A DNA stretch of 64,000 bases from Escherichia coli. GTDB lineage: Bacteria > Pseudomonadota > Gammaproteobacteria > Enterobacterales > Enterobacteriaceae. A program made the position numbers and the translations under genes. The notes under the pieces are model-generated. The model worked only from the letters and a program-made list of their open reading frames with translations, did no database searches and was not told the origin of the DNA. Below, piece by piece: positions 12,295 to 35,467 of this stretch; position 1 is the stretch's first letter; every line of letters begins with the position of its first letter. Location: NCBI RefSeq assembly GCF_003790525.1, contig NZ_CP033635.1; one strand, 5' to 3'.

Positions 12295-12336
12295 TAAACC
12301 TGTGGCGATTCAGTCTATTAAACCTGTGGCGATTCA
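12295..12336 (+). repeat. tandem direct repeat (2 x 18 bp TAAACCTGTGGCGATTCA, 24-bp period) upstream of hsdM
   Basis: Read directly from sequence at 12295-12312 and 12319-12336; possible operator/regulatory site. Confidence 0.6.
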
Positions 12337-12497
12337 CTTTATGGTGTCATAAACTTAAATCTAGCGCCGGGTAGAACAAGTTAATCGAACGATGTAGCGG
12401 CCATTTAGGCGTTACAGAAAGAACAGAATTTTAAATTTATAGTGAAGCCGTTGCAGCAACTTTGTGGGGTGCAACCAACACTGAACAGGAAAAGAAA

Positions 12498-14921: not shown

Positions 14922-14927
14922 GTCGTT

Positions 14928-16238
14928 ATGATGAAGATTTCTGAAATGCCGAAATATGACGATTATGTAGATTCTGGGGTTGAATGGTTGGGACGAGTAC
15001 CTGCTTCTTGGGAATTAACACGATTAGGCACTCGCTTTAATGAGCGTAGATCTAAAGTTTCAGACATTGACTACCCCGCACTCTCCGTAACAAAAAAAGG
15101 CGTTCTACCTCAATTAGATAATGCGGCCAAAACAAAAGATGGCGATAACAGAAAGCTAGTAAAAGAGGGTGACTTTGTTATAAATAGCCGCTCTGATCGG
15201 AAAGGTTCTAGTGGAGTATCTGACAGAGATGGATCAGTATCGCTTATAAATATAGTGCTTAAACCAAAAGGGATTCATCCAAAGTTTTCTGAGCATCTTT
15301 TGAAAAGTCATGCATTTATTGAGGAATACTATCGTGTTGGACGTGGAATTGTCGCAGATTTGTGGACTACTCGATACGATGAAATGCGGACGATTACTAT
15401 ATCTGTTCCTTCACTAGAAGAGCAAACCCGTATCGCCAACTTCCTAGACAAGAAAACCGCTCTAATCGACGAAGCGATTTCGATCAAAGAAAAGCAAATT
15501 AATCTGTTAAAAGAACATAAGCAGATCATCATCCAACAGGCGGTGACCCAAGGGCTTGATCCCAATGTGCCAATGAAAGACTCCGGTGTGGATTGGATTG
15601 GAGATATTCCAGAGCATTGGGAAGTTGTGCCTCTAAAAAGGTTGGCGGTCTTGAGCCCTTCTGTGAAAGTTTCAAATAGAAAGTCCAAAGAATTAGTTAC
15701 TTTCTTAGCGATGGAAAAGGTTTCAACAGATGGATTTATTGATCAAGATACATTAATGCCTATATGTGATGTGAGCCAAGGTTTTACGGTTTTTAACCGG
15801 GGGGATGTGATTGTTGCAAAAATTACACCTTGCTTTGAAAATGGGAAATCTGCTTGGCTTAACAATCTTCAAACTGAGTTTGGATACGGCTCAACCGAGT
15901 TTCACGTTTTAAGATGTGGTCAGAGAATTATAGGAAGTTTTCTCTACTTAATCGTTAGTTCGCCCCTTTTTCTTAATGCCGGTGAGGCTATGATGACTGG
16001 TTCAGCTGGTCAGAAGCGCGTGCCTAGTTCATTTATCCAAAACTTTCCTACCGCAATTCCCGGAGTTGCAGAGCAAGAAAAAATAGTATCAAAGGTAAAA
16101 GAGCTGTTTTCACAGATTGATGTTGTTGTGGCTTCTACGGTAAATCAAATCGAAAAGCTCAAAGAATACAAAACCACCCTGATCAACAGCGCCGTGACAG
16201 GAAAAATAAAAATCACCCCAGAAATGGTTGAGCAATAG
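14928..16238 (+). CDS. hsdS: Type I restriction-modification system, specificity subunit HsdS
   Basis: 436 aa, two-TRD architecture with conserved central and C-terminal helical regions; 6-bp gap after hsdM. Confidence 0.8.
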   Translation: MMKISEMPKYDDYVDSGVEWLGRVPASWELTRLGTRFNERRSKVSDIDYPALSVTKKGVLPQLDNAAKTKDGDNRKLVKEGDFVINSRSDRKGSSGVSDRDGSVSLINIVLKPKGIHPKFSEHLLKSHAFIEEYYRVGRGIVADLWTTRYDEMRTITISVPSLEEQTRIANFLDKKTALIDEAISIKEKQINLLKEHKQIIIQQAVTQGLDPNVPMKDSGVDWIGDIPEHWEVVPLKRLAVLSPSVKVSNRKSKELVTFLAMEKVSTDGFIDQDTLMPICDVSQGFTVFNRGDVIVAKITPCFENGKSAWLNNLQTEFGYGSTEFHVLRCGQRIIGSFLYLIVSSPLFLNAGEAMMTGSAGQKRVPSSFIQNFPTAIPGVAEQEKIVSKVKELFSQIDVVVASTVNQIEKLKEYKTTLINSAVTGKIKITPEMVEQ

Positions 16239-16247
16239 GAAGCGAAT

Positions 16248-17411
16248 ATGTTCACGGTAAATTATCAGACCAACAGGATTAGTCCGGTTAAGACGAAGAG
16301 ATTCAGTGAGTTGGGCTTTACTGAGCGCAAAAATCTTCAGGAATGGTTGGCACACGAGCCTTCCGCACTGGGTGAAGAGCTGCTGATTATTCAAAAAGAG
16401 TTCGATGGCTTTGATGACACCCGTGAACGCTTAGATTTACTGGCACTGGATAAAGATGGCAACTTGGTCATTATTGAAAACAAGCTGGACGATAGTGGCC
16501 GCGATGTGGTGTGGCAGGCGCTTAAATATGCCTCCTACTGCGCAAGTTTAACCAAAGCGCAAATCGTTGAAATTTACCAGCAGTACTTAGACCGCTATGA
16601 GCCTGTAACAGGAGAGGTTGACTTGTTTAATACCCCTGCAAGTGCCTCTGCTAGAATATGTGAGTTTTTGGATGCGCCCGATCTCGATGAGTTAAAGCTC
16701 AACCTGGGTAACAGCCAGCGCATTATGTTAGTTGCGGCAAACTTTCGCAAAGAAGTGACCAGCACCGCGCTGTGGTTATTGGGTCAAGGCATTAGCATTG
16801 CCTGCTTCAAAATCACGCCTTATTCACTGGGTGAACAGCTACTGATTAATATTGACCAGATCATTCCAACGCCAGAAGCGAAAGAGTTGATGATCGGCAT
16901 TAATGCCAAGGAAGCGGAAGAAAAAACCACCGAAGTGGTACTAAAAAACCGCCATACCGTGCGTCGCGAGTACTGGGAGCGTGCCTTAGAGGCGTTTCAG
17001 AAAAGCTCTTGCCAACTCTATAACAACATTAGCCCAAGCAAAGATCATTGGTTATCAGCAGGCTCAGGGCTAAGTGGATGTCCGTATAACCTGATATTTC
17101 TGCAAAAAGAGCTTCGAGTAGAGCTTTGGATCAGCCGTGGGGTTACCGAAGAGAATAAATACCTTTTTGATTTGTTGAGTCAGTCCAAACAAGACATTGA
17201 GCATACTTTTGGTGCAGAACTTGAGTGGATGAGGCTGGATGAGAAGAAATCTTGCCGTATCCAGTTTTCGACCAAAGCTGACGGGTTTAACAAAGAGACT
17301 TGGCCCCAAGCGGTTGCGTGGCACTTAGAGCAGATGACAAAGTTAGAAAAAGCCTTAAAAGGACCGCTGCAAAAAGCGGCTGAGGCAATGAAACAGAAGA
17401 ATTTTGATTAA
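16248..17411 (+). CDS. uncharacterised protein embedded in the Type I R-M operon; N-terminal RecB-like PD-(D/E)xK nuclease signature, C-terminal region of unknown function
   Basis: 387 aa; motifs D63, E77-x-K79 (VIIENK), Q90-x3-Y94; no Walker A; RBS AGGAAG; 9 nt after hsdS stop, 14 nt before hsdR start. Confidence 0.55.
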   Translation: MFTVNYQTNRISPVKTKRFSELGFTERKNLQEWLAHEPSALGEELLIIQKEFDGFDDTRERLDLLALDKDGNLVIIENKLDDSGRDVVWQALKYASYCASLTKAQIVEIYQQYLDRYEPVTGEVDLFNTPASASARICEFLDAPDLDELKLNLGNSQRIMLVAANFRKEVTSTALWLLGQGISIACFKITPYSLGEQLLINIDQIIPTPEAKELMIGINAKEAEEKTTEVVLKNRHTVRREYWERALEAFQKSSCQLYNNISPSKDHWLSAGSGLSGCPYNLIFLQKELRVELWISRGVTEENKYLFDLLSQSKQDIEHTFGAELEWMRLDEKKSCRIQFSTKADGFNKETWPQAVAWHLEQMTKLEKALKGPLQKAAEAMKQKNFD

Positions 17412-17425
17412 GGGAATTTACAATT

Positions 17426-20400
17426 ATGGTCAGTCAAACCAATGAACAAGCATTAGAGTCGGCCATTGAGAAATGTCTGGCTGGGATCAGTACTGAAGAG
17501 CTTAAAGAGGGACTGAGTCAGCAGTCACTGGGTGCTGGATACTTCATTGGTGCTGCTAGTGACTTTAATATGCAATATGCCATTGATGAACGTTTTTTCT
17601 GGCAATTTCTGCAAAAGACACAAGAAGTAGAGTTGGCCAAACTGCAAAAGAACAACCCCTCAGATTGGCAACGTAAGTTACTCGAACGATTTGACCGACT
17701 GATTAAGAAGCATGGCATTCTTCATTTACTTAAGAAAGGGCTAAGCGTAGACGATGCTCATTTCAATTTGCTCTATCCAGCCCCTTTGGCAAGTAGTAGT
17801 GAGAAGGTAAAGCAAAACTTTGCAGATAACGTGTTTAGTTGTACTCGCCAAGTGCGCTATTCCATGGTAAATCCCCTACAAGAAATCGACATGGTATTGT
17901 TTATCAACGGAATACCCTTGATAACGCTGGAGTTGAAGAACGCATGGACCGGGCAAACAGCACGTTATCACGGCCAAAAGCAGTATCGAGATGATCGGGA
18001 TGCAACTCAGCCATTGCTGACCTTTGGCCGCTGCCTAGTGCATATGGCGGTCGATACCGACGAAGTGTATATGACCACCAAGTTATCAGGTAGCAGTACA
18101 TTCTTCTTGCCGTTCAATAAAGGTCACAATCTTGGACAAGGCAACCCGCCGAATCCATCTGGCCATAAAACGGCATACCTATGGCAAGAAGTATTCACTA
18201 AAGACAGCTTGGCGAATATTATTCAGCATTTTGTGCGTCTGGATGGGTCAAGCAAAGATCCATTACCAAAGCGAACCCTGTTCTTTCCTCGATACCATCA
18301 ATTGGATGTGGTGAGAAAATTAGTAGACCATGCCGCCCAGCACGGTGTCGGTCAGACTTACTTAATTCAACACTCAGCCGGTTCAGGTAAGTCTAACTCG
18401 ATTACCTGGGCAGCTTATCAGCTAATTGAAACCTATCCTGCTTCGTCTGATGTGGCAGGCGGAAAAAGCTTGGAGCAGCCGTTGTTTGACTCTGTGATTG
18501 TGGTCACCGATAGACGCCTATTGGACAAGCAGCTGCGGGATAACATTAAAGAGTTTTCTGAAGTAAAGAACATTATTGCCCCAGCGAATAAGTCTTCTGA
18601 GCTTAAGCAGGCGCTGGAGAATGGCAAAAAGATTATTATAACGACGATTCAGAAATTCCCGTTCATTATTGATGGTATCGCCGATCTTAGTGACAAGCGC
18701 TTTGCAGTGATCATCGATGAAGCACACAGCTCACAGTCTGGTTCGGCGCATGACAATATGAACCGAGCGATGGGCAAGTCTGAAGTCGAAGAGGCAGAAG
18801 ATGCTCAGGATAAAATCCTTCAGGCGATGAGATCGCGTAAGATGCGCGGGAATGCGTCGTACCTGGCATTTACAGCGACACCAAAAAACAGCACTTTGGA
18901 GAAATTTGGTCAACGCCAAGAAGATGGCTCTTACAAGCCGTTTCACTTGTATTCGATGAAACAAGCCATTGAAGAAGGCTTCATCTTGGATGTGCTGGCA
19001 AATTATACGACGTACAAAAGTTATTATGAGATTGAGAAATCAATTGCTGATAACCCTGAGTTTGATACCAAAAAGGCGCAGAAAAAACTCAGAGCTTATG
19101 TAGAACGAAGCCAGCAAACAATTGATATCAAGGCAGAGATTATGCTGGAGCATTTTGTTCCGCATGTCGTGAATACGAAAAAGCTCAAAGGTAAAGGTAA
19201 AGGAATGGTGGTCACTCAAAATATTGAGGCGGCCATTCGATACTACAAAGCGATAAGGCGAATACTTGAGGAGCAAGGAAACCCGTTTAAAGTTGCCATT
19301 GCTTTCTCAGGAACCAAAGAAGTTGATGGTATTGAATATACCGAAGCAGATATTAATGGTTTTGCCGAGTCAGATACCAAAGATATGTTTGATACCGATG
19401 AGTATCGACTTTTAGTGGTTGCTAACAAGTATCTGACTGGGTTTGACCAGCCTAAGCTTTGCGCCATGTATGTAGATAAGAAGCTCGCCAGTGTCTTGTG
19501 TGTTCAGGCGCTATCTAGGCTCAATCGCAGTGCACCTAAGCTAGGGAAGAAAACAGAAGACTTGTTTATCCTGGATTTTTTCAACTCGGTTGAAGATATT
19601 CAATCAGCATTCGATCCTTTCTATACAGCAACGTCATTGTCCCAAGCTACAGATATAAACGTACTGCACGAGTTGAAAGATGAAATGGACGATGTCGGTG
19701 TGTACGAGTGGTATGAAGTTGAAGACTTTGTGACGCGTTATTTCAAGAATGAAGACGCCCAAACACTCAGTCCAATCATTGATATTGCCGCAGCGCGGTT
19801 TGACCATGAACTAGATCTTGAAGCTGAAGCTAAAGTGGACTTTAAGATTAAAGCCAAACAGTTCGTTAAAATCTATGGGCAGATGGCTTCTATCATGCCT
19901 TATGAAATGGTCAGCTGGGAAAAACTGTTTTGGTTCCTGAAGTTTTTAATACCGAAATTGAAAGTGGAAGATCCCGATGCTGATGCTATTGATGAGCTTC
20001 TCGATTCTGTCGATCTGAGTTCATACGGTTTGCAACGTGTGAAGCTTAACCACAGCATTAAACTTAGTGACCAAGAAGCGGAGCTTGATCCTCAAAATCC
20101 GAACCCACGTGGGGTGCATGGCGGTGAAAAAGAAACTGACCCGCTGGATGAAATCATTCGCACATTTAATGAGCGATGGTTCCAGGGCTGGAGTGCCACA
20201 CCTGAAGAGCAAAAGGTTAAGTTCGTGAACATCGCTGAAAGTATCCGCAATCACCCTGACTTCGAATCGAAATACAAAAACAACCCAGATCCCCATAATC
20301 GAGATTTGGCCTTCGAAAAAATGCTCAAGGAAATCATGCTGCAACGCCGTAAAGATGAACTTGAGCTCTACAAGTTGTTCGCAGGAGATTCAGCATTTAA

Positions 20401-20443
20401 AGCCTCGTGGACGCAAAGTATGCAACGAATGGTAGGTAGGTAG
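17426..20443 (+). CDS. hsdR: Type I restriction enzyme, endonuclease/translocase subunit HsdR
   Basis: 1005 aa; N-terminal PD-(D/E)xK (DMVLFINGIPLITLELK), SF2 helicase motifs GSGKS and DEAH. Confidence 0.85.
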   Translation: MVSQTNEQALESAIEKCLAGISTEELKEGLSQQSLGAGYFIGAASDFNMQYAIDERFFWQFLQKTQEVELAKLQKNNPSDWQRKLLERFDRLIKKHGILHLLKKGLSVDDAHFNLLYPAPLASSSEKVKQNFADNVFSCTRQVRYSMVNPLQEIDMVLFINGIPLITLELKNAWTGQTARYHGQKQYRDDRDATQPLLTFGRCLVHMAVDTDEVYMTTKLSGSSTFFLPFNKGHNLGQGNPPNPSGHKTAYLWQEVFTKDSLANIIQHFVRLDGSSKDPLPKRTLFFPRYHQLDVVRKLVDHAAQHGVGQTYLIQHSAGSGKSNSITWAAYQLIETYPASSDVAGGKSLEQPLFDSVIVVTDRRLLDKQLRDNIKEFSEVKNIIAPANKSSELKQALENGKKIIITTIQKFPFIIDGIADLSDKRFAVIIDEAHSSQSGSAHDNMNRAMGKSEVEEAEDAQDKILQAMRSRKMRGNASYLAFTATPKNSTLEKFGQRQEDGSYKPFHLYSMKQAIEEGFILDVLANYTTYKSYYEIEKSIADNPEFDTKKAQKKLRAYVERSQQTIDIKAEIMLEHFVPHVVNTKKLKGKGKGMVVTQNIEAAIRYYKAIRRILEEQGNPFKVAIAFSGTKEVDGIEYTEADINGFAESDTKDMFDTDEYRLLVVANKYLTGFDQPKLCAMYVDKKLASVLCVQALSRLNRSAPKLGKKTEDLFILDFFNSVEDIQSAFDPFYTATSLSQATDINVLHELKDEMDDVGVYEWYEVEDFVTRYFKNEDAQTLSPIIDIAAARFDHELDLEAEAKVDFKIKAKQFVKIYGQMASIMPYEMVSWEKLFWFLKFLIPKLKVEDPDADAIDELLDSVDLSSYGLQRVKLNHSIKLSDQEAELDPQNPNPRGVHGGEKETDPLDEIIRTFNERWFQGWSATPEEQKVKFVNIAESIRNHPDFESKYKNNPDPHNRDLAFEKMLKEIMLQRRKDELELYKLFAGDSAFKASWTQSMQRMVGR

Positions 20444-20461
20444 GTAGAAAGGAGTGATGGT

Positions 20462-20590
20462 TTGCTGAAGGCAGTCTCAGAGTTATTAGGTGGGTCACCA
20501 GGCCTGAAAGGACGTCAAATTGCCAAGGAGCTGGGGCTGGATAAGTCACAAGTGAACTCGTTTCTTCACAAACACCAGGATACGTTTTGA
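20462..20590 (+). pseudogene. truncated small ORF (winged-HTH-like) downstream of hsdR, ended by the terminal TGA of the IS911 left end
   Basis: RBS AAAGGAG then TTG; encodes LLKAVSELLGGSPGLKGRQIAKELGLDKSQVNSFLHKHQDTF; stop supplied by IS terminus at 20588-20590. Confidence 0.35.
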
Positions 20591-20933
20591 AGTGGCACAC
20601 TGAATTTGGCCACCTGAACAGAGGTGATATGCTCACCTCAGAACAACACAGGTGCTCCAATGAAAAAAAGAAATTTCAGCGCAGAGTTTAAACGCGAATC
20701 CGCTCAACTGGTTGTTGACCAGAACTACACGGTGGCAGATGTCGCCAAAGCTATGGATGTTGGCCTTTCCACAATGACAAGATGGGTCAAACAACTGCGT
20801 GATGAGCGTCAGGGCAAAACACCAAAAGCCTCTCCGATAACACCAGAACAAATCGAAATACGTGAGCTGAGGAAAAAGCTACAACGCATTGAAATGGAGA
20901 ATGAAATATTAAAAAAGGCTACTGTAGATTCAA
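20588..20933 (+). mobile_element. IS911-like element, 5' part (left IR and orfA), truncated by IS30
   Basis: Terminus TGAAGTGGCACACTGAATTTGGCCACC; Orf[52 protein letters not shown]... from ATG 20660, diverges after ...ILKKAT. Confidence 0.75.
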
Positions 20934-21685
20934 TCTGTCAATGCAACACCCCTTTCAATTATCTCTTTCGGTGTTTTGAACTTCAGTGTCTTTCTCGGTC
21001 TGTTGTTTAGCTGAGCAGCAACCAGATCTAGTTCATGTTGAGTATATTGGGCAAGACATGTCTTTTTAGGAAAGTACTGCCGAATTAGCCCATTTGTGTT
21101 CTCATTTGTTCCCCGCTGCCAAGGACTCTGAGGATCGCAGAAGTAAACTTTAACGCCGGTGCTGACAGTAAATTCTAGATGTCTGGCCAGTTCCATTCCT
21201 CTGTCCCATGTCAGTGATTTTCTGAGTTCTGACGGTAAACTCAGGAATTTGTCGGTAAGAGCCTGATTTACTGAGACAGAATCTTTGCCCCTGAGTCTAA
21301 GGATGATCGTATAACGTGATTTTCGGTCTACAAGTGTGGCTATATGAGAGTTTTTTGTACCTGAGACTAAATCGCCCTCCCAATGCCCCAGAGAGCGTCT
21401 GTTATCGATATTTCGGGAACGTTCGTGAATTGGTGTTCCGTTCACTATGTTAATCGTACCTCTTTCGCCTTTGCGGGTATGACGCCTGCCATGGCGAAGG
21501 CTATGCGACCGTCGCAGATGCTGTATATTCAGGTGGTGTAGCGCTTCACGGCTACGAAAGTACAGCGTTTTATAAATTGTCTCAGGTGATATTCGCAGCG
21601 TTTTTTGACGTGGTTTTGTTCGCCTTAACCATCCTGATATTTGCTCTGGAGACCATTTCATCTCCAGCTTTTCCAGAACAAGGTA
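20926..21685 (-). mobile_element. IS30 fragment (3' about 60 percent, including right end), inserted into IS911 orfA
   Basis: Minus-strand product matches IS30 transposase from ...LVLEKLEMKWSPEQISGWL... to C-terminus; N-terminal HTH region absent. Confidence 0.8.
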
Positions 21686-22250
21686 AGCGTAAACCGACCG
21701 CCGTATGTAGCCATTAGACAAGAATTGGTAACTTAGACGCCCATCTGACACAGACGGACATCTAAGTATGGAATTACAGGACTGGCGAAAAGAACCTCTA
21801 AAAAGTATTCGAATGAATTCAAACTTCGTATGATTGACTGGCATCACAACCCGGTGCTTGTGTGGCCCAGATTGCTCGAGAAAATGGCGTCAATGATAAT
21901 GTTATTTTCAAATGGCTCAGACTTTGGCAAAACGAAGGGCGTATATCGCGGCGTCTTCCGGTAACAACCTCTTCTGACACTGGCGTTGAATTATTACCTG
22001 TGGAGATAACGCCGGATGAGCCGCAAGAACCGGTGGCTGCTCTTACTCCGTCTTTATCCACCCAGACTACTGTCAGTGCCAGCTCCTGCAAGGTGGAGTT
22101 CCGTCACGGTAACATGACGCTGGAAAATCCTTCACCAGATCTGCTCACAGTGTTGCTCCGTGAACTGAGCGGGAGGGGACAATGATCTCACTCCCGTCAG
22201 GTACCCGCATCTGGCTGGGTGCCGGCATTACCGATATGCGTAAATCCTTC
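21686..22250 (+). mobile_element. IS66-family remnant (frameshifted orfA, truncated orfB start)
   Basis: ...AQIARENGVNDNVIFKWLRLWQNEGR... and MISLPSGTRIWLGAGITDMRKSFNG then premature stop; boundaries approximate. Confidence 0.6.
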
Positions 22251-22997
22251 AACGGATACGACATATGCTGAAGGAGGAGCAGTAATGGATTAAGTGATAA
22301 CAAATGCCCAGAAATAGAGGTTTAAATCCTGCTTAGTTAGTACATAAATACTATTTTGATGAAAATTATTATATGTCACCTCGGATTTTAATCAGGCGCC
22401 CAGATTAAATCAAGTATTGAGCGCCTGATTATGTTTATTCATTAATATCTGTCATTGATTGTCTTATTATCAGTTACCCCCGTCTTAATCAGAGTTTTCA
22501 TTTATTTTTAATGCATAATCAGATGCCGCCTCATCATTATCCTCAGTATTATCATAGCCGAAAACTTCTCCCGGGCACGGGCGTTCACGATAATAGTCAT
22601 CGTTATAGTTTTCATCGTCAGATAATGATATGTCGTATTCTGAATATGATTCACCACAATTATACATAAAATCATCTCCTTTGGGATTGTTACAATAATT
22701 AGTGAGTTTATTCGAAAAAATAATGAGCGCCAGACCAATCCACCCGACTTTTGATTATAATCATGAAGATACCTGTCTCAGTACAAATAGAATCAAACTC
22801 AATACAGCATGATTCACCTTTATATTCTCTCAGGGAAACCAAATACCACTATTCAACTATTAAGAATAAAATTCTGGAGGTGCGATTATCTGAAGATACC
22901 TGCATCCTAAATAATTTCAGACAGATATTATCTCCGTGAATCCCCCGCCACCTTTCCGGTGCGCGGGGTTTTGTCTTTTTTCACCGGGAATACATGT

Positions 22998-23870
22998 ATG
23001 AATCCGTCTGATGCCATTGAGGCAATTGAAAAACCACTGGCCTCCCTGCCTAATTCGCTTTCCCGCCATATCCTCGAACATCTGCGCAAACTCACCAGCC
23101 ACGAACCCGTGATTGGCATTATGGGTAAAAGCGGGGCCGGTAAATCCTCACTCTGTAATGCACTGTTTCAGGGGGAGGTCACCCCGGTCAGTGATGTTCA
23201 CGCCGGCACCCGGGAAGTGCGGCGCTTCCGTCTGAGTGGCCACGGTCACAGCATGATTATCACTGACCTGCCCGGGGTGGGCGAGAGCCGGGACAGGGAT
23301 GCAGAGTATGAAGCCCTGTACCGTGACATTCTGCCTGAACTTGACCTGGTACTGTGGCTGATTAAAGCCGATGACCGTGCCCTGTCTGTGGATGAGTATT
23401 TCTGGCGACACATCCTGCACCGGGGACATCAGCAGGTGCTGTTTGTGGTGACGCAGGCCGACAAAACGGAGCCCTGCCATGAATGGGATATGGCCGGCAT
23501 TCAGCCTTCTCCCGCACAGGCACAGAACATTCGTGAGAAAACAGATGCGGTATTCCGGCTGTTCCGGCCCGTACATCCGGTTGTGGCCGTATCGGCCCGC
23601 ACCGGCTGGGAACTGGATACGCTGGTCAGTGCGCTCATGACAGCACTTCCCGACCATGCCGCCAGTCCCCTGATGACCCGCCTGCAGGACGAGCTGTGCA
23701 CGGAATCTGTCCGGGGGCAGGCCCGTGAACAGTTTACCGGTGCGGTGGACCGGATATTTGACACGGCGGAGAGCGTCTGTGTTGCCTCTGTGGCTCGTAC
23801 GGTTCTGCGTGCCGTCCGTGACACGGTGGTCTCTGTTGCCCGCGCTGTATGGAACTGGATTTTCTTCTGA
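22998..23870 (+). CDS. island-associated GTPase (YeeP/YkfA/YfjP family)
   Basis: MNPSDAIEAIEKPL... with P-loop GIMGKSGAGKSS. Confidence 0.75.
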   Translation: MNPSDAIEAIEKPLASLPNSLSRHILEHLRKLTSHEPVIGIMGKSGAGKSSLCNALFQGEVTPVSDVHAGTREVRRFRLSGHGHSMIITDLPGVGESRDRDAEYEALYRDILPELDLVLWLIKADDRALSVDEYFWRHILHRGHQQVLFVVTQADKTEPCHEWDMAGIQPSPAQAQNIREKTDAVFRLFRPVHPVVAVSARTGWELDTLVSALMTALPDHAASPLMTRLQDELCTESVRGQAREQFTGAVDRIFDTAESVCVASVARTVLRAVRDTVVSVARAVWNWIFF

Positions 23871-23984
23871 ACAGTCTGCCAGGGGAAATGCCTGATTACA
23901 TTGCGTTAACCAACTGAAAACATGACACAAACACCTCATCCCCCTCCTGTTTCTCTTGCGTGACTGCCTTGCTGTTAATAGAAC

Positions 23985-24030
23985 AAAACGATCAATAAGA
24001 CAGGTGTCGATCGTTGCCATCGATCGTTTG
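23985..24030 (+). promoter_or_regulatory. antigen 43 phase-variation switch: three clustered Dam GATC sites (OxyR operator region)
   Basis: GATC at 23990, 24009 and 24022, about 220 bp upstream of the flu start codon. Confidence 0.55.
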
Positions 24031-24242
24031 TAGTGGTTAATGGTCTGCGAAAAGGCAGCTGAATCTCTTCATCATGCATAACGGAATTGCACACAACGGA
24101 CTGATACTTCTCTGGCGGATGAGAGAGGGAAAGCATTTATGTCCGGGAAAAACCACTTTATCTGACCATGCTGTTTTGTACCTGCCGGTATCCACTTTTG
24201 TGGGTACCGGCTTTTTTATTCACCCTCTGTAAGGAAAAGCTG

Positions 24243-27089
24243 ATGAAACGACATCTGAACACCAGCTACAGGCTGGTATGGAATCACATTACGGGCACCC
24301 TGGTGGTGGCTTCCGAACTGGCGCGCTCACGGGGAAAACGCACCGGTGTGGCGGTTGCACTGTCTCTTGCTGCTGTCACATCAGTCCCGGCACTGGCTGC
24401 TGACACGGTTGTACAGGCGGGAGAAACCGTGAACGATGGAACACTGACAAATCATGACAACCAGATTGTCTTCGGTACGGCCAACGGAATGACCATCAGT
24501 ACCGGGCTGGAGTATGGGCCGGATAACGAGGCCAATACCGGCGGACAATGGATACAAAATGGCGGTATCGCCAACAACACTACTGTCACCGGTGGTGGTC
24601 TTCAGAGAGTGAATGCCGGAGGAAGCGTTTCAGACACGGTTATCAGTGCCGGAGGCGGACAGAGCCTTCAGGGGCAGGCAGTGAATACCACTCTGAACGG
24701 CGGTGAGCAGTGGGTACATGAAGGCGGGATTGCAACGGGTACCGTCATTAATGAGAAGGGCTGGCAGGCCGTCAAATCCGGCGCAATGGCAACCGACACG
24801 GTTGTGAATACCGGCGCGGAAGGGGGACCGGATGCAGAAAATGGTGATACCGGGCAGTTTGTTCGCGGAAATGCCGTACGCACCACCATCAATAAAAATG
24901 GTCGTCAGATTGTGGCTGCTGAAGGAACGGCAAATACCACTGTGGTTTATGCCGGCGGCGACCAGACTGTACATGGTCACGCACTGGATACCACGCTGAA
25001 TGGGGGGTACCAGTATGTGCACAACGGCGGTACGGCGTCTGGCACTGTTGTAAACAGTGACGGCTGGCAGATTATCAAGGAAGGTGGTCTGGCGGATTTC
25101 ACCATCGTTAACCAGAAAGGCAAACTGCAGGTGAACGCCGGTGGTACAGCCACGAATGTCACCCTGAAGCAGGGAGGCGCACTGGTCACCAGTACGGCGG
25201 CAACCGTCACCGGCAGCAACCGTCTGGGCAATTTCACTGTGGAAAACGGTAATGCTGACGGTGTTGTTCTGGAGTCCGGTGGTCGCCTGGATGTACTGGA
25301 GGGCCATTCAGCCTGGAAAACACTGGTGGATGACGGCGGAACCCTGGCAGTGTCTGCCGGTGGTAAGGCAACAGATGTCACCATGACATCCGGTAGTGCC
25401 CTGATTGCAGACAGTGGTGCCACTGTTGAGGGGACCAATGCCAGCGGTAAGTTCAGTATTGATGGCACATCCGGTCAGGCCAGCGGACTGCTGCTGGAAA
25501 ATGGCGGCAGCTTTACGGTTAATGCCGGAGGACTGGCCAGCAACACCACTGTCGGACATCGTGGAACACTGACGCTGGCTGCCGGGGGAAGTCTGAGTGG
25601 CAGAACACAGCTCAGTAAAGGCGCCAGTATGGTACTGAATGGTGATGTGGTCAGTACCGGCGATATTGTTAACGCAGGAGAGATTCACTTTGATAATCAG
25701 ACGACACAGGAAGCCGCGCTGAGCCGTGCTGTTGCAAAAGGCGACGCCCCGGTAACGTTCCATAAACTGACAACCAGTAACCTCACCGGCCAGGGCGGCA
25801 CCATCAATATGCGTGTTAGCCTTGATGGCAGCAATGCCTCTGACCAGCTGGTGATTAATGGTGGTCAGGCAACCGGCAAAACCTGGCTTGCGTTTACAAA
25901 TGTCGGGAACAGCAACCTCGGTGTGGCAACCACCGGACAGGGTATCCGGGTTGTGGATGCACAGAATGGCGCCACCACAGAAGAAGGTGCGTTTGCCCTG
26001 AGTCGCCCGCTTCAGGCCGGCGCCTTTAACTACACCCTGAACCGTGACAGCGATGAAGACTGGTACCTGCGCAGTGAAAATGCTTATCGTGCTGAAGTCC
26101 CCCTGTATACATCCATGTTGACACAGGCAATGGACTATGACCGGATTCTGGCAGGCTCCCGCAGCCATCAGATCGGTGTAAACGGTGAAAATAACAGCGT
26201 CCGTCTCAGCATTCAGGGCGGTCATCTCGGTCACGATAACAACGGCGGTATTGCCCGTGGAGCCACGCCGGAAAGCAGCGGCAGCTATGGCTTCGTCCGT
26301 CTGGAGGGTGACCTGCTCAGAACAGAGGTTGCCGGTATGTCTCTGACGACAGGGGTGTATGGTGCTGCAGGCCATTCTTCCGTTGATGTTAAGGATGATG
26401 ACGGTTCCCGCGCCGGCACGGTCCGGGATGATGCCGGCAGCCTGGGCGGATACCTGAATCTGACACACACGTCCTCCGGCCTGTGGGCTGACATTGTGGC
26501 ACAGGGAACCCGCCACAGCATGAAAGCGTCATCGGACAATAACGACTTCCGCGCCCGGGGCTGGGGCTGGCTGGGCTCACTGGAAACCGGTCTGCCCTTC
26601 AGTATCACTGACAACCTGATGCTGGAACCACAACTGCAGTATACCTGGCAGGGACTCTCCCTGGATGACGGCCAGGATAACGCCGGTTATGTGAAGTTCG
26701 GGCATGGCAGTGCACAACATGTGCGTGCCGGTTTCCGTCTGGGCAGCCACAACGATATGAGCTTTGGTGAAGGCACCTCATCCCGTGACACCCTGCGCGA
26801 CAGTGCAAAACACAGTGTGAGTGAACTGCCGGTGAACTGGTGGGTACAGCCTTCTGTTATCCGCACCTTCAGCTCCCGGGGTGACATGAGCATGGGTACA
26901 GCTGAAGCCGGCAGTAACATGACGTTCTCACCGTCACAGAATGGCACGTCACTGGACCTGCAGGCCGGACTGGAAGCCCGTGTCCGGGAAAATATCACTC
27001 TGGGCGTTCAGGCCGGTTATGCCCACAGCGTCAGCGGCAACAGCGCTGAAGGCTATAACGGTCAGGCCACGCTGAATGTGACTTTCTGA
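24243..27089 (+). CDS. flu: antigen 43 (Ag43) self-associating autotransporter adhesin
   Basis: Extended autotransporter signal peptide MKRHLNTSYRLVWNHITG..., repetitive beta-helix passenger, C-terminal beta-barrel ending ...ATLNVTF. Confidence 0.85.
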   Translation: MKRHLNTSYRLVWNHITGTLVVASELARSRGKRTGVAVALSLAAVTSVPALAADTVVQAGETVNDGTLTNHDNQIVFGTANGMTISTGLEYGPDNEANTGGQWIQNGGIANNTTVTGGGLQRVNAGGSVSDTVISAGGGQSLQGQAVNTTLNGGEQWVHEGGIATGTVINEKGWQAVKSGAMATDTVVNTGAEGGPDAENGDTGQFVRGNAVRTTINKNGRQIVAAEGTANTTVVYAGGDQTVHGHALDTTLNGGYQYVHNGGTASGTVVNSDGWQIIKEGGLADFTIVNQKGKLQVNAGGTATNVTLKQGGALVTSTAATVTGSNRLGNFTVENGNADGVVLESGGRLDVLEGHSAWKTLVDDGGTLAVSAGGKATDVTMTSGSALIADSGATVEGTNASGKFSIDGTSGQASGLLLENGGSFTVNAGGLASNTTVGHRGTLTLAAGGSLSGRTQLSKGASMVLNGDVVSTGDIVNAGEIHFDNQTTQEAALSRAVAKGDAPVTFHKLTTSNLTGQGGTINMRVSLDGSNASDQLVINGGQATGKTWLAFTNVGNSNLGVATTGQGIRVVDAQNGATTEEGAFALSRPLQAGAFNYTLNRDSDEDWYLRSENAYRAEVPLYTSMLTQAMDYDRILAGSRSHQIGVNGENNSVRLSIQGGHLGHDNNGGIARGATPESSGSYGFVRLEGDLLRTEVAGMSLTTGVYGAAGHSSVDVKDDDGSRAGTVRDDAGSLGGYLNLTHTSSGLWADIVAQGTRHSMKASSDNNDFRARGWGWLGSLETGLPFSITDNLMLEPQLQYTWQGLSLDDGQDNAGYVKFGHGSAQHVRAGFRLGSHNDMSFGEGTSSRDTLRDSAKHSVSELPVNWWVQPSVIRTFSSRGDMSMGTAEAGSNMTFSPSQNGTSLDLQAGLEARVRENITLGVQAGYAHSVSGNSAEGYNGQATLNVTF

Positions 27090-27140: not shown

Positions 27141-27415
27141 CTTTCAGGGAGCAACAGATATGCCGGGTTGTACATCACGTTTATTGCCGAAGGCTCTTTT
27201 GCTGCCAAATGGCATCTGAATCGTTCACAATTTGGCCGGTTATTGCCCGATCCCGATGGGGTTATTGGGTGATCTCCTTCCATAAAAATACGCAGCTCGC
27301 CAGTGAAGGGCTTCTCAGACAATAAACGTCATTCATTTCGTCCATCAGGCCGCGTCTTCTCCGGGAGACGCGGCTTTTTCATTTATACCGCTAACTCATT
27401 CATAAGGAATAAATC

Positions 27416-28234
27416 ATGCGATTAGCCAGTCGTTTTGGTTATGCGAACCAGATACGCCGTGACCGCCCCTTAACCCGTGAAGAACTGATGCAGGTCGTCC
27501 CCAGCGTATTCGGGGAAGAGAAACACACATCCAGAAGCGAGAACTATACCTGGATCCCCACCATCACCGTGCTGGAAAGCCTGCAGCGGGAAGGCTTCCA
27601 ACCATTCTTCGCCTGCCAGACCCGCGTGCGCGACCCGGGCCGCCGGGGATACACCAAACACATGCTGCGTCTGCGCCGTGACGGGGAGATAAACGGACAA
27701 CATGTCCCTGAAATCATCCTGCTGAACTCCCATGACGGTACCTCCAGCTACCAGATGCTGCCGGGTTACTTCAGGTTCGTCTGCCAGAACGGATGCGTCT
27801 GTGGTCAGTCTCTGGGGGAAGTGCGTGTTCCACACCGGGGAGACGTAGTGGAGAAAGTTATCGAAGGGGCTTACGAGGTGGTGGGGGTTTTTGACCGGAT
27901 TGAGGAGAAGCGTGATGCCATGCAGTCGCTGGTCCTGCCGCCACCGGCACGCCAGGCGCTGGCACAGGCGGCACTGACTTACCGTTATGGTGACGAACAT
28001 CAGCCCGTCACCACTGCTGACATTCTGACACCGCGACGCCGGGAGGATTACGGTAAGGACCTGTGGAGCGCATATCAGACCATCCAGGAGAATATGCTGA
28101 AAGGCGGGATTTCCGGTCGCAGTGCCAGAGGAAAACGTATCCATACCCGTGCCATTCACAGCATCGACACGGACATTAAGCTCAATCGCGCATTGTGGGT
28201 GATGGCAGAAACACTGCTGAAGAGTATGCGCTGA
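27416..28234 (+). CDS. DUF932-family island protein (YfjQ/YafZ-like)
   Basis: 272 aa, recalled similarity to CP4-prophage YfjQ/YafZ proteins. Confidence 0.6.
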   Translation: MRLASRFGYANQIRRDRPLTREELMQVVPSVFGEEKHTSRSENYTWIPTITVLESLQREGFQPFFACQTRVRDPGRRGYTKHMLRLRRDGEINGQHVPEIILLNSHDGTSSYQMLPGYFRFVCQNGCVCGQSLGEVRVPHRGDVVEKVIEGAYEVVGVFDRIEEKRDAMQSLVLPPPARQALAQAALTYRYGDEHQPVTTADILTPRRREDYGKDLWSAYQTIQENMLKGGISGRSARGKRIHTRAIHSIDTDIKLNRALWVMAETLLKSMR

Positions 28235-28324
28235 TGCCTTTTCCCTGAAAGCGCAGTTCTGACTCATGTCCGTCCCTGCCCCGCGACTTCTTCCATTCAT
28301 TTACTTTTTATAAGGAATAATCTC

Positions 28325-28810
28325 ATGACAACCGTTTTGCATAATTCCACCACACCTTCTGTTTCCGTAACCGCTGTATCAGAGAATAACCCGCCTCAAC
28401 TGGTTGCCACCCTCGTCCCTGATGAACAGCGCATCAGCTTCTGGCCGCAGCATTTTGGCCTCATTCCACAGTGGGTGACCCTGGAGCCCCGTGTCTTCGG
28501 CTGGATGGACCGTCTGTGCGAAGACTACTGCGGTGGTATCTGGAATCTGTACACCCTGAACAACGGCGGGGCATTTATGGCACCCGAACCGGATGACGAT
28601 GATGACGAAACATGGGTACTGTTCAGTGCCATGAACGGTAACCGCGCTGAAATGAGCCCCGAAGCCGCCGGCATTGCTGCCTGTCTGATGACGTACAGCC
28701 ATCATGCCTGTCGTACGGAGTGTTATGCCATGACGGTCCATTATTACCGGCTGCGGGATTACGCCCTGCAGCATCCGGAATGCAACGCCATTATGCGCAT
28801 CATTGACTGA
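28325..28810 (+). CDS. antirestriction protein, KlcA/ArdB-like (YfjX/YafX family)
   Basis: 161 aa, characteristic ...WVTLEPRVFGWMDRLCEDYCGGIWNLYTLNNGGAFMAP... Confidence 0.7.
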   Translation: MTTVLHNSTTPSVSVTAVSENNPPQLVATLVPDEQRISFWPQHFGLIPQWVTLEPRVFGWMDRLCEDYCGGIWNLYTLNNGGAFMAPEPDDDDDETWVLFSAMNGNRAEMSPEAAGIAACLMTYSHHACRTECYAMTVHYYRLRDYALQHPECNAIMRIID

Positions 28811-28824
28811 AAGGGGCCGGAACA

Positions 28825-29301
28825 ATGCAACAGCTTTCCTTTCTGCCCGGAGAAATGACAACCAGAGAGCGCAGCCTCATTCAGCGGGCCCTGAAAACCC
28901 TGGACCGCCATCTTCATGAACCCGGCGTGGCCTTCACCTCCACGCATGCGGCACGGGAGTGGCTGATTCTGAACATGGCGGGACTGGAGCGGGAAGAGTT
29001 CCGGGTGCTGTATCTGAACAACCAGAATCAGCTGATTGCCGATGAAACCCTCTTCACCGGCACCATCAACCGCACGGAAGTCCATCCCCGTGAAGTGATT
29101 AAACGCGCCCTGTATCACAATGCCGCTGCTGTGGTGCTGGCACACAATCACCCGTCCGGTGAAGTCACACCCAGCAAGGCAGACCGCCTTATCACGGAAC
29201 GTCTGGTACAGGCACTGGCCCTGGTGGATATCCGGGTACCGGACCATCTGATAGTTGGTGGCAACCAGGTTTTCTCCTTTGCGGAACACGGTCTGCTTTA
29301 A
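28825..29301 (+). CDS. RadC-like JAB-domain protein (YeeS/YkfG family)
   Basis: JAMM motif HNHPSGEVTPSKADRLIT. Confidence 0.8.
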   Translation: MQQLSFLPGEMTTRERSLIQRALKTLDRHLHEPGVAFTSTHAAREWLILNMAGLEREEFRVLYLNNQNQLIADETLFTGTINRTEVHPREVIKRALYHNAAAVVLAHNHPSGEVTPSKADRLITERLVQALALVDIRVPDHLIVGGNQVFSFAEHGLL

Positions 29302-29369
29302 CCCGTCACCGTTACAACCACATCACACCTGTTTTCACTTTTATCTTCTGTCTTCAGAGGTATCCCACT

Positions 29370-29591
29370 ATGAAAATCATCACCCGTGGCGAAGCCATGC
29401 GTATTCATCAACAACATCCTGCATCCCGTCTTTTCCCGTTCTGTACCGGCAAATACCGCTGGCACGGCAGCACTGAAGCGTATACCGGTCGTGAAGTGCA
29501 GGATATTCCCGGTGTGCTGGCCGTGTTTGCTGAACGCCGTAAGGACAGTTTTGGCCCATATGTCCGGTTGATGAGCGTCACCCTGAACTGA
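29370..29591 (+). CDS. DUF987 protein (YeeT/YkfH-like)
   Basis: 73 aa MKIITRGEAMRIHQQHPASRLFPFCTGKYRWHGS... Confidence 0.65.
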   Translation: MKIITRGEAMRIHQQHPASRLFPFCTGKYRWHGSTEAYTGREVQDIPGVLAVFAERRKDSFGPYVRLMSVTLN

Positions 29592-29670
29592 GTCTGGAAG
29601 GGCATTCAGATGAGCAGAATTATCGCCACCACCGGACCATTCTTAACCGATTTTCTGTGAGGACTTTATC

Positions 29671-30039
29671 GTGTCAGACACACTGCCCGGGACAACGCAT
29701 CCCGACAACAACAACGACCGCCCCTGGTGGGGGCTGCCCTGCACCGTGACGCCCTGTTTCGGGGCACGTCTGGTGCAGGAGGGTAACCGGTTGCATTACC
29801 TTACAGACCGCGCCGGTATCAGAGGGCGGTTCAGCGATGCGGATGCGAACCATCTGGACCAGGCCTTTCCGCTGCTGATGAAACAACTGGAACTCATGCT
29901 CACCAGCAGTGAACTGAATCCCCACCGTCAGAATACCGTCACGCTGTATGTTAAAGGGCTGACCTGCCATGCGGACACCCTCGGCAGCTGTGGTTACGTT
30001 TATCTGGCTGTTTATCCGACGCCCGAAATGAAAAATTAA
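29671..30039 (+). CDS. cbeA: type IV TA system antitoxin CbeA (YeeU family)
   Basis: 122 aa [44 protein letters not shown]... Confidence 0.8.
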
Positions 30040-30128
30040 CTCTCCAGAATAGCCTTCTGCTACGGCCTGGTGCTTTCACCACGCCACTTTTCCATTTTTC
30101 ATCTCTGCATATCAGGAAAATCTTCAGT

Positions 30129-30512
30129 ATGAAAACATTACCTGTATTACCCGGGCAGGCGGCCAGTTCACGCCCGTCTCCGGTTGAAATCTGGCAGACA
30201 CTGCTCACCCGACTGCTGGACCAGCACTACGGCCTTACGCTGAATGACACACCGTTCGCCGATGAACGTGTGATTGAGCAGCATATTGAAGCTGGCATTT
30301 CACTGTGTGATGCGGTGAACTTTCTCGTTGAAAAATACGCACTGGTACGTACCGACCAGCCGGGATTCAGCGCCTGTACCCGCTCTCAGTTAATAAACAG
30401 TATTGATATTCTCCGGGCTCGCCGGGCAACCGGCCTGATGACCCGCGACAATTACAGAACGGTAAATAACATTACCCTGGGTAAGCATCAGGAGTCGAAA
30501 CGATGCAACTGA
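30129..30512 (+). CDS. cbtA: type IV TA system toxin CbtA (YeeV family)
   Basis: 127 aa [48 protein letters not shown]... Confidence 0.8.
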
Positions 30513-30991
30513 CCCTGACACTGGAAGCCGACAGCGTTAACGTACAGGCACTGAATATGGGGCGAATTGTCGTTGACATTGATGGTGTTAATCTCGCTGA
30601 ACTGATTAACATGATCTGCGATAACGGCTACTCCCTTCGTGTTGTTGATGAATCTGACCGGACCTCAGCAGACTGCACGCCACCATTTGCTGCCCTTACC
30701 GGCATACGCTGCAGTACCGCACATATCACGGAAACGGACAACACCTGGCTGTACTCGCTGTCGCATCAGACGAATGACACCGGCGAATCAGAATGGATTC
30801 ATTTTACAGGCAGAGGGTATCTGTTACGTACCGATGCTTTGTCGTATCCGGTGCTACACCTTAAACGTCTGGGCCTGTCAAAAACCTTCCGCCGTCTGGT
30901 TGTCACTCTCATCCGGCGTTATGGCGTCAGTCTTATTCATCTGGATGCCAGCGCCGGGTGTCTGCCGGATTTACCCACTTTCGACTGGTAA
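30503..30991 (+). CDS. YeeW-like island protein
   Basis: 162 aa; overlaps cbtA stop; follows cbeA-cbtA as in CP4 prophages. Confidence 0.6.
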
Positions 30992-31002
30992 CCAGAAACA
31001 AC

Positions 31003-31200
31003 ATGAAATCATTAACCACGGAAACAGCGCTGGATATTCTGATTGCGTGGCTGCAGGACAATATCGACTGTGAATCCGGAATTATCTTTGACAACGATGA
31101 GGATAAAACGGATTCGACAGCCCTGTTGTCCTGTATTGAACAGGCCAGGGAGGATATCCGTACCCTGCGCCAACTGCAGCTTCAGCCCCCGAACCGGTGA
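31003..31200 (+). CDS. small hypothetical island protein (65 aa)
   Basis: ORF MKSLTTETALDILIAWLQDN...; no family recognised. Confidence 0.35.
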   Translation: MKSLTTETALDILIAWLQDNIDCESGIIFDNDEDKTDSTALLSCIEQAREDIRTLRQLQLQPPNR

Positions 31201-31296
31201 GTTTCACTCATCATCTCACTCACCAGACTTCATTCCACTGACGCCAGCCTGAACAGGGCTGGCGTTTTCATTTATCTGCAAAAAGGAATATCGATT

Positions 31297-32142
31297 ATGT
31301 CTGATATCACAGCCTCCCGTCCGGAAGTAGTCAACGGGCATACGGACGTTATCTGCTCAACCAGTATCCGCCACATTCTGGCTGTACGAAAAAGTACACT
31401 GCTGCAAATCAACACACTTATCCGGCAACTGGCTGAAATCTCAGCAATGACAGAAAGTATTGGCGGTAAAACCGCACTGGACTGGGCGATGAAACAGGAT
31501 TTTCGCTGTGGCTGCTGGCTCATGGAGAAACCTGAAACGGCAATGAAAGCCATCACACACAATCTCGATCGTGAAATCTGGCGTGACTTGATGCAACGTT
31601 CCGGGATGCTTTCCTTAATGGATGCACAGGCCCGTGAGACATGGTACCGGTCACTGGAGTACGATAATTTTCCGGAAATCAGCGAAGCGAACATCCTGAG
31701 CACATTTGAACAACTGCACCAGAATAAGGATGAGGTGTTTGAGCGAGGGGTGATCAACGTCTTCAGAGGGCTGAACTGGAATTACAAAACCAATTGCCCC
31801 TGTAAATTTGGCAGTAAAATTATCGTCAACAATCTGGTGAGATGGGACCGGTGGGGATTTCATCTTATCACCGGACAACAGGCTGACCGACTCGCCGATC
31901 TGGAAAGAATGTTGCACCTGTTCAGCGGTAAACCAATCCCCGACAATCGGGAAAACATCACTATTCGTCTGGATGAGCACATTCAGTCTGTTCAGGGTAA
32001 AGAGAGCTATGAAGATGAGATGTTCAGCATCAGATACTTTAAGAAGGGCTCCGCGCATATCACATTCAGAAAACCAGAACTGGTTGATCGGCTAAATGAC
32101 ATCATTGCAAAGCGTTATCCGGGACAATTATCAGCCATCTGA
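31297..32142 (+). CDS. hypothetical island protein (281 aa), tRNA-proximal
   Basis: Long clean ORF; no family assignable with confidence. Confidence 0.45.
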   Translation: MSDITASRPEVVNGHTDVICSTSIRHILAVRKSTLLQINTLIRQLAEISAMTESIGGKTALDWAMKQDFRCGCWLMEKPETAMKAITHNLDREIWRDLMQRSGMLSLMDAQARETWYRSLEYDNFPEISEANILSTFEQLHQNKDEVFERGVINVFRGLNWNYKTNCPCKFGSKIIVNNLVRWDRWGFHLITGQQADRLADLERMLHLFSGKPIPDNRENITIRLDEHIQSVQGKESYEDEMFSIRYFKKGSAHITFRKPELVDRLNDIIAKRYPGQLSAI

Positions 32143-32240
32143 GTCAGATGGAAAAAAGCTTACCTGACCCATTACCTGACCCAATTCAAAGGAAAAAGAA
32201 AAAGGGTTAGCTGGTTTATTAGCTAACCCTTTGTTGTGTA

Positions 32241-32316
32241 TGGTGGCCCCTGTTGGGTTTGAACCAACGACCAAGCGATTATGAGTCGCCTGCTCTAACC
32301 ACTGAGCTAAGGGGCC
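32241..32316 (-). tRNA. ileX: tRNA-Ile (anticodon CAU, lysidine-type), island integration site
   Basis: Reverse complement GGCCCCTTAGCTCAGTGGTTAGAGCAGGCGACTCATAATCGC...GGGGCCACCA; adjacent to mug as in E. coli. Confidence 0.85.
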
Positions 32317-33625: not shown

Positions 33626-35467
33626 TTAATCGTCCAGGAAGCTACGCAGCACTTCAGAACGGCTCGGGTGACGCAGTTTGCGCAGCGCCTTCGCTTCGAT
33701 CTGACGGATACGTTCGCGGGTAACGTCGAACTGTTTACCCACTTCTTCCAGCGTGTGGTCGGTGTTCATATCGATACCGAAACGCATACGCAGAACTTTC
33801 GCTTCACGCGCGGTCAGGCCAGCCAGCACGTCGTGCGTTGCCGCACGCAGGCTTTCGGTGGTCGCAGAATCCAGCGGCAGCTCGAGGGTGGTATCCTCGA
33901 TGAAATCCCCCAGATGCGAATCTTCATCATCACCGATCGGCGTTTCCATGGAGATTGGCTCTTTGGCGATCTTCAGCACTTTGCGGATCTTGTCTTCCGG
34001 CATCAGCATACGTTCAGCCAGTTCTTCCGGCGTCGGTTCACGGCCCATCTCTTGCAGCATCTGGCGAGAAATACGGTTGAGTTTGTTGATAGTCTCAATC
34101 ATATGCACCGGAATACGGATGGTGCGCGCCTGATCCGCGATAGAACGGGTGATCGCCTGACGGATCCACCAGGTTGCGTAGGTGGAGAACTTGTAACCAC
34201 GGCGGTATTCGAATTTATCAACCGCTTTCATCAGGCCGATGTTACCTTCCTGAATCAGGTCAAGGAACTGCAAGCCACGGTTGGTGTATTTCTTGGCGAT
34301 AGAAATAACCAGACGTAAGTTCGCTTCAACCATCTCTTTCTTCGCACGGCGGGCTTTTGCTTCACCGATGGACATACGACGGTTGATATCTTTAACCTGC
34401 TCGATGGTCAGGCCGGTTTCTTCTTCAATCTGCTGCAGTTTCTGCAGGGCGCGATGCACTTCTTCAGAGACATCGTGCAGTTTTTCCGACCACGGCTTGT
34501 TCATCGCAATTGCCGCGTTGAACCAGGTATCGCTGGTTTCGTTGCCGGTAAACAGGGTAATGAAGTTTTTCTTCGGCATTTTGCACTGCTCAACGCAGAG
34601 CTTCATGATCAGACGTTCTTGCGTACGAACGCGGTCCATCATGACGCGCATGCTGTTGACCAGGTAGTCAAACTGCTTCGGCACCAGGCGGAACTGTTTA
34701 AATACTTCAGACAGTTTCAGGATCTCTTCCTGAGCAGCAGCGTGACTGCGACCTTTCGCTTTGATGGTGTCACGCGTTACAACGTACTGAGCGCGCAGTT
34801 CCGCAAATTTTTCGCGAGCCAGTTCCGGGTCGATGCTGTTGTCATCATCGGCGCTGTCGTCATCGCCATCTTCTTCGTCTTCATCTTCGTCATCGTCCAG
34901 ATCTTCCTGGGAAAGCTCAGAACCGACGTGAGTGGCGGTAGGTGCCAGATCTTCTTCTGCGTTCGGGTCAACAAAGCCGGTGATCAGATCGGACAGACGC
35001 GCTTCTTCTGCTTCAACACGATCGTACTGTTCCAGCAGATAGGTGATCGCTTCCGGATATTCAGCAACGGAGCATTGAACCTGGTTGATCCCGTCTTCAA
35101 TACGCTTAGCGATGTCAATTTCGCCTTCGCGGGTCAACAGTTCAACGGTGCCCATTTCACGCATGTACATGCGTACCGGGTCAGTCGTGCGCCCGATTTC
35201 AGATTCCACGCTGGAAAGCACCTGCGCGGCGGCTTCGGCAGCATCTTCGTCCGCGGTGTTTTCAGCCAGCATCAGATCATCGGCATCCGGTGCTTCTTCC
35301 ATCACCTGAATGCCCATGTCGTTGATCATTTGGATGATGTCTTCGATCTGATCTGAATCGACGATATCTTCCGGCAGATGGTCATTGACCTCGGCATAGG
35401 TCAGATAGCCTTGCTCCTTACCACGGGTGACAAGAAGTTTCAGCTGTGACTGCGGGTTTTGCTCCAT
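33626..35467 (-). CDS. rpoD: RNA polymerase sigma-70 factor
   Basis: 613 aa [55 protein letters not shown]... Confidence 0.95.

Follow-up and report, generated by a model that had tools for sequence, protein, structure and literature searches.

A very probable Dam/OxyR phase-variation switch upstream of an Ag43/Cah family adhesin gene in an Escherichia coli genomic island

Three GATC sites lie close together upstream of an Ag43/Cah family adhesin gene in a 64,000-nucleotide stretch of DNA (the window), which was assigned to Escherichia coli by sequence matches. Do these sites belong to a Dam/OxyR switch as known from agn43 (flu) of strain K-12? In K-12, OxyR represses agn43 from a single repressor site, methylation of three GATCs abrogates OxyR binding, and bound OxyR blocks Dam; the gene is locked OFF in dam mutants, derepressed in oxyR mutants and locked ON by overproduction of Dam, and cells switch at a rate of about 1e-3 per generation (PMC2909390, PMC3764049, PMC4872104, PMC13337833). 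The comparisons reported here indicate that the triad region is very probably an Ag43/Cah phase-variation switch of the same kind. The system is already known, the K-12 mechanism having been established since about 2000, and the window adds no new biology to it.

The adhesin gene occupies positions 24243-27089 of the plus strand. It is intact and encodes 948 aa, which match the NCBIfam equivalog NF033177 over 948/948 positions with 1986 bits, and a Shine-Dalgarno sequence, AAGGA, lies ahead of it on the same strand (24231-24235). Its product displays 71% identity to K-12 Flu, whose passenger domain is longer by about 90 aa. The initial annotation had placed the triad in the leader of flu; the leader stands, with an IS102 match from position 23988, but the gene itself is a Cah-like allele and not flu. 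Directly upstream is a YeeP-like GTPase family gene (22998-23870, plus strand), the same neighbor as in the CP4-44 element of K-12. Matches to the region 23870-24260 were found in about 50 complete genomes at 100% identity and in about 3,900 others at 90-99% identity, where it is annotated between genes for a 'GTPase family protein' and an 'Ag43/Cah family autotransporter adhesin'. The Ag43 island is located at tRNA-Ile and adjoins mug-rpoD-dnaG. Its upstream part (about 8400-22900) contains a group II intron (ltrA), remnants of IS3, IS256, IS30 and IS66, and a type I restriction-modification system that differs among otherwise near-identical strains, with a different hsd block in ET151. The downstream part (27400-32300) is a CP4-44-like block with DUF932, antirestriction and RadC genes and a YeeU/CbtA toxin-antitoxin pair.

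The three Dam sites were found at exactly the positions given in the initial annotation, namely 23990-23993 (GATC-I), 24009-24012 (GATC-II) and 24022-24025 (GATC-III), and no further GATC is present within about 22184-26171. They precede the ATG at 24243 by 253, 234 and 221 nt, and the triad thus sits at the 5' end of the leader. The spacing of 19 and 13 bp is that of the K-12 flu/agn43 operator (1818/1837/1850 in the K-12 locus, L001), so GATC-II and GATC-III are in the same frame as in K-12. The frame GATC-N15-GATC-N9-GATC occurs once in the 64-kb window, with about 0.003 occurrences expected from the GATC density. The clustering of GATCs by itself is weak evidence and not diagnostic. It proves little alone because seven triads within 36 bp or less were observed in the window versus 1.1 expected from dinucleotide shuffles, and the other ones are in coding sequence, for example of rpoD and ttdA. 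The triad at 34132/34151/34163, with a spacing of 19 and 12 bp, is inside the rpoD coding sequence and unrelated to the switch. A further stretch at 40993-41135 holds seven GATCs in about 140 bp inside ttdA, a gene named by its offset from strain XD35. No OxyR half-sites were found in these two dense clusters (34132-34163 and 40993-41135).

OxyR recognition was evaluated with the half-site consensus ATAGnTnnnAnCTAT, which has 10 specified bases and is quoted from two studies (PMC2909390, PMC4856963). Half-site A, ATAGAACAAAACGAT, at 23978-23992 matches 8/10 of these bases, overlaps the -10 hexamer and has GATC-I at its end. Half-site C, ATCGTTGCCATCGAT, at 24010-24024 also matches 8/10, extends across GATC-II and GATC-III and begins 32 bp past half-site A. 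These two are the only half-sites of at least 7/10 within 23800-24250. A single match of 8/10 is not rare, with 15 in the 64-kb window. Scored together as one 47-bp pattern, half-sites A and C reach 16/20, which is the sole maximum of the window (the next best value is 13), is attained anywhere in 2% of shuffled windows, and equals the score of K-12 at the homologous position. The 32-bp offset is also that of the opvAB half-site pairs, where it was called canonical for reduced OxyR (PMC4856963), and it equals the half-site spacing that in gtr is consistent with reduced OxyR (PMC2909390).

The oxidised-type arrangement did not set the site apart from background. The best match in the window to the contiguous 37-bp consensus ATAGnTnnnAnCTAT-N7-ATAGnTnnnAnCTAT is 13/20, a value attained 12 times, and in the K-12 register the window scores 10/20 versus 14/20 for K-12. 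Nor does the locus resemble an activator site of oxidised OxyR, with four contiguous ATAG/CTAT elements upstream of the -35 hexamer, as the operator lies over -10/+1. Wallecha 2002 reportedly mapped the K-12 transcription start to the G of the upstream GATC and the protection by OxyR(C199S) to positions -16 to +42; the frame homologous to this reported footprint defines the whole operator at 23974-24031. In this frame 40/58 bases are identical to K-12, compared with 22/58 and 14/58 for the 58-bp blocks next to it. At the consensus level, the GATCs are contained in a single predicted OxyR site. The initial annotation had named a triad lying apart from any OxyR-binding consensus as grounds for giving up the switch; the two coincide, as both 8/10 half-sites hold the GATCs.

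A promoter scan recovered the K-12 promoter, TTGTCC-17-TAGAAT. By ungapped homology its counterpart in the window is TTGCGT-17-TAGAAC, consisting of the -35 hexamer TTGCGT at 23956-23961 (3/6 to TTGACA) and the -10 hexamer TAGAAC 17 bp past it at 23979-23984, both on the plus strand. We take it as a candidate promoter whose function is predicted from this homology. Among 121 natural copies of the operator, TTGCGT is the -35 hexamer in 104 and TAGAAT the -10 hexamer in 118. The promoter matches the consensus at 7/12 positions in the window, 8/12 in the majority class of natural operators described below and 9/12 in K-12. The scan was empty for the window. It was also empty for the control cah of O157:H7 despite its TAGAAT, because the -35 hexamer there is only 3/6, and this control refutes the -10 substitution from T to C as the explanation of the empty window scan. 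The scan carries no information on majority-class promoters, for which consensus counts predict poorly. By homology, the predicted operator would lie over the -10 hexamer and the putative transcription start, as for an OxyR repressor. The G of GATC-I corresponds to the base at which K-12 transcription reportedly starts, and the K-12 isrC annotation begins with it as well.

The leader RNA itself was identified as Rfam RF00124 (IS102 = IsrC) at 23988-24224 on the plus strand, starting 2 nt upstream of GATC-I, with 60 bits versus a gathering score of 46 (E=1.8e-9) and the full model 1-206 covered. An intrinsic-terminator-like element is found at its 3' end, directly before the Ag43 ribosome-binding site, at 24184-24217 on the plus strand. 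It is composed of a hairpin at 24184-24211, with a 12-bp stem including 8 G-C pairs, followed by a T-run, and the hairpin is almost identical in K-12 and all 120 metagenomic loci. This is the known IsrC/IS102 terminator, a second control layer that was missing from the initial annotation. Expression of flu is described as being under antitermination control at IsrC in a report that cites Wallecha 2014 for this point (PMC5389530).

The trans-acting factors of the switch are nearly universal in the species. Both dam and oxyR are present in 5425/5426 complete E. coli genomes, each outside the window. By analogy with K-12, we infer OxyR binding, its blocking by methylation, the start site and the switching at the window allele as follows. 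Transcription from a sigma-70 promoter, TTGCGT-17-TAGAAC, would begin on or close to the G of GATC-I (23990). Reduced OxyR would bind as a tetramer to two dyad half-sites (23978-23992 and 24010-24024) separated by one extra turn of the helix, and the three GATCs, +1 and the -10 hexamer would all be covered by the pair. In the OFF state, bound OxyR would block RNA polymerase and shield the GATCs from Dam, leaving the sites unmethylated. In the ON state, Dam would methylate the GATCs first, after replication, and the absence of OxyR binding would permit transcription. Each state would reproduce itself and give rise to heritable, reversible ON/OFF variation of the adhesin. Transcripts would then traverse the 253-nt IS102/IsrC leader, whose terminal hairpin may serve as a second, attenuation-type checkpoint. 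No experiments on the window allele or on the majority operator class were found in the literature searched, and on cah, the CFT073 alleles and wild-strain methylomes this literature gave general statements only.

Natural variation of the operator was examined in the 121 usable copies, 120 of them metagenomic loci recovered by an anchor on the leader hairpin, which lies outside the operator; conservation was counted over the 75 distinct operator sequences among them. The exact GATC triad is kept in 113/121 copies, and one GATC is lost by a single substitution in the other 8/121 (about 7%). GATC-II is lost in five loci (L007, L019, L083, L115 and L071; to AATC or TATC, for example, homologous to window position 24009) and GATC-I in three (L017, L060 and L098; to GATG or AATC, for example, homologous to 23990 and 23993). 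None of the eight losses affects a base that counts towards the OxyR consensus match, and in these natural variants the switch bias may be altered.

The variation avoids the bases that OxyR is expected to read. Over the 75 distinct sequences, only 1/16 of the consensus-matching OxyR positions varies, versus 6/10 of the N positions (Fisher p=0.005) and 80/93 flank positions (p about 1e-10). Every consensus-matching base of half-site A is invariant, and the variation of half-site C is concentrated at the N positions 24014 and 24016-24018. The pentamer 24014-24018 between GATC-II and GATC-III displays 17 versions in the 121 copies, and the next base, a consensus A, never varies. The spacer between the -35 and -10 hexamers (23962-23976) is similarly variable to this pentamer. 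Such focused conservation of the OxyR-specified bases is the pattern predicted by a protein-binding constraint, as read from the aligned copies.

The natural operators fall into two classes, a majority class of 105 copies with the spacer GATAAAACAGGTATC and a K-12-like class of 16 copies with the spacer GATATCTATTTTATC. The majority class is carried by O157:H7 cah, ETEC H10407 and EPEC E2348/69. With 105/121 copies in this class, the K-12 model sequence represents the less common form, and its central CTAT element is not general. Outside E. coli-derived DNA, the operator pattern was found nowhere among 100,044 species genomes, the one match being a misbinned E. coli fragment, and so there is no evidence for the module outside E. 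coli or before other genes. This fragment (L124; JAIJJM010000733.1, 1560 bp), binned in a 'Collinsella sp.' MAG, derives from the E. coli island, and in it the operator and leader (homologous to window 23597-24190) are joined directly to the homologue of window 30828-31809, with the Ag43 ORF and its neighbors deleted. It is probably a binning contaminant of that MAG.

The window operator belongs to the majority class and is without the central CTAT element of K-12. It differs from the class consensus at seven positions within -16 to +42 (23984, 23994, 23999, 24006, 24016, 24018 and 24030), where the median is one, and is the most divergent of the 105 majority-class copies. Six of the seven differences are AT to GC transitions. 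The change at 23984, T to C, yields the -10 hexamer TAGAAC, which is found in 3/121 copies (the window, ET151 and the metagenome locus L079), and falls on an N position of half-site A. It may lower transcription in the ON state with no effect on OxyR recognition. We tentatively consider that natural sequence variation tunes the Ag43 switch and that the window allele represents a low-output or bias-shifted setting, a possibility we hold at well below even confidence. The features behind it are TAGAAC, three changes in the GATC-I/II spacer, the GC-rich N positions of half-site C, the 17 pentamer variants, and the copies lacking one GATC with the OxyR consensus spared. If so, a graded series of settings would exist in the population, and allele-specific switching rates would be predictable from sequence.

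A somewhat less probable reading, and in our judgment an unlikely one, is that the switch architecture is intact while the allele is effectively silent or very weak through TAGAAC and the 3/6 -35 hexamer. The operator of this lineage would then be a relic, and phase variation would hardly show in the phenotype. Few promoter positions are conserved as strongly as the final T of the -10 hexamer. The rarity of TAGAAC points the same way, as do the restriction of the window-identical 131-bp operator to 47/3460 genomes carrying the element, the lower promoter match (7/12 versus 8/12 and 9/12) and the unusual divergence of the copy (seven differences versus a median of one). However, the Ag43 ORF is intact in 4/4 copies of the window operator lineage with a dN/dS of 0.23-0.33, which argues that the gene is still in use there. 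The lineage has also diversified, as represented by L079, and is present in many hosts. All seven changes spare the GATCs and the consensus-matching OxyR bases, which suggests that the operator is still under selection, and consensus counts that miss the majority-class promoter as well predict output poorly.

It is much more doubtful that the GATC-II/III palindrome is kept mainly as a hairpin of the IS102/IsrC RNA, with a CGAUCG/CGAUCG stem and a variable loop, and that the GATCs are a by-product. The Rfam IS102 model does pair exactly the GATC-II/III stretch, a terminator scan gives a hairpin at 24008-24026, and the natural variation sits in the loop at 24014-24018. Yet half-site A and GATC-I, which lie at or upstream of the start, are equally invariant, and so are the A and T at 24019-24020 in the loop, which is expected from the OxyR consensus A but not from a loop. 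The stem provides no covariation since it never varies, and the minimum-free-energy fold of the leader is without the GATC-II/III hairpin as such, with a z-score of only -2.0. The K-12 literature, moreover, has methylation and OxyR acting on DNA. The RNA-hairpin and DNA-operator readings are not mutually exclusive. Finally, a chance GATC cluster, or a SeqA/hemimethylation cluster that plays no regulatory part specific to the gene, could appeal to the abundance of GATC triads within 36 bp in the window (seven versus 1.1 expected), but is refuted by the unique N15/N9 frame (about 0.003 expected), its identity to the characterised K-12 operator, its embedding in OxyR half-sites and its retention in 113/121 independent copies.

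The Dam/OxyR switch matters through its output, as Ag43/Cah drives autoaggregation and biofilm formation. The ON/OFF state of Ag43 makes clonal E. coli populations heterogeneous and can confound phenotyping (PMC3764049). For annotators, expression of the adhesin copy in the window is likely bistable and methylation-dependent, as judged from its operator. The descriptive additions are modest: most natural E. coli Ag43 operators are in a class unlike the K-12 model, conservation marks exactly the OxyR-specified bases, and the window copy is unusually diverged with a rare -10 change.

Among known methylation-dependent switches, the pap type, governed by Dam and Lrp, combines a pair of GATC boxes at a distance of 102 bp with Lrp sites and a PapI-like gene (PMC2909390). 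The locus is not of this type, as no pair of GATCs 102 bp apart occurs in 22000-26500 and the three clustered GATCs are the only ones in 23000-25500. Salmonella gtr and opvAB are like the window in that ATAGnTnnnAnCTAT-type half-sites hold the GATCs with the spacing of reduced OxyR, and in both systems methylation and OxyR binding are mutually exclusive (PMC2909390, PMC4856963). They differ from it in having two pairs of GATCs (four in all) and, upstream of the promoter, overlapping OxyR sites that serve alternatively for activation or repression, whereas the window has one candidate repressor site with three GATCs over -10/+1. A switch of the gtr/opvAB type, with four GATCs and three or four half-sites, is thus not what the locus contains, with three GATCs and two half-sites of at least 7/10 in 23800-24250.

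The closest characterised system is agn43 of K-12 in CP4-44. The comparison was made by ungapped alignment anchored on GATC-I, as MAFFT inserted a 13-base gap that misaligned the triads. This alignment to the K-12 agn43 regulatory region, which the initial annotation had proposed as a check, confirms the same GATC frame of 19 and 13 bp. The bases around each GATC are the same as in the window (AAAACGATCAATA, TCGATCGTT and ATCGATCG), and 14/15 bases of half-site A and 12/15 of half-site C are identical. Both loci have the operator over -10/+1, an IS102/IsrC leader with the terminator hairpin, a yeeP-like GTPase gene upstream and an Ag43-family gene downstream. In contrast, the GATC-I/II spacers are unrelated (AATAAGACAGGTGTC in the window versus AATATCTATTTTATC in K-12), the sequence past GATC-III also differs, and the additional central CTAT-containing element of K-12, ATCTATTTTATCGAT (7/10), is absent from the window. 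The hexamers differ as well, with TTGCGT versus TTGTCC at -35 and TAGAAC versus TAGAAT at -10. The window leader is 33 nt longer than that of K-12, and its island lies at tRNA-Ile by rpoD while K-12 flu lies in CP4-44. The majority-class operators, such as those of O157:H7 cah and ETEC H10407 Ag43, are like the window in having TTGCGT at -35, the spacer type ...AAACAGGT..., both 8/10 half-sites, a leader hairpin at a distance of 191 bp and a Cah-type gene encoding 948 aa.
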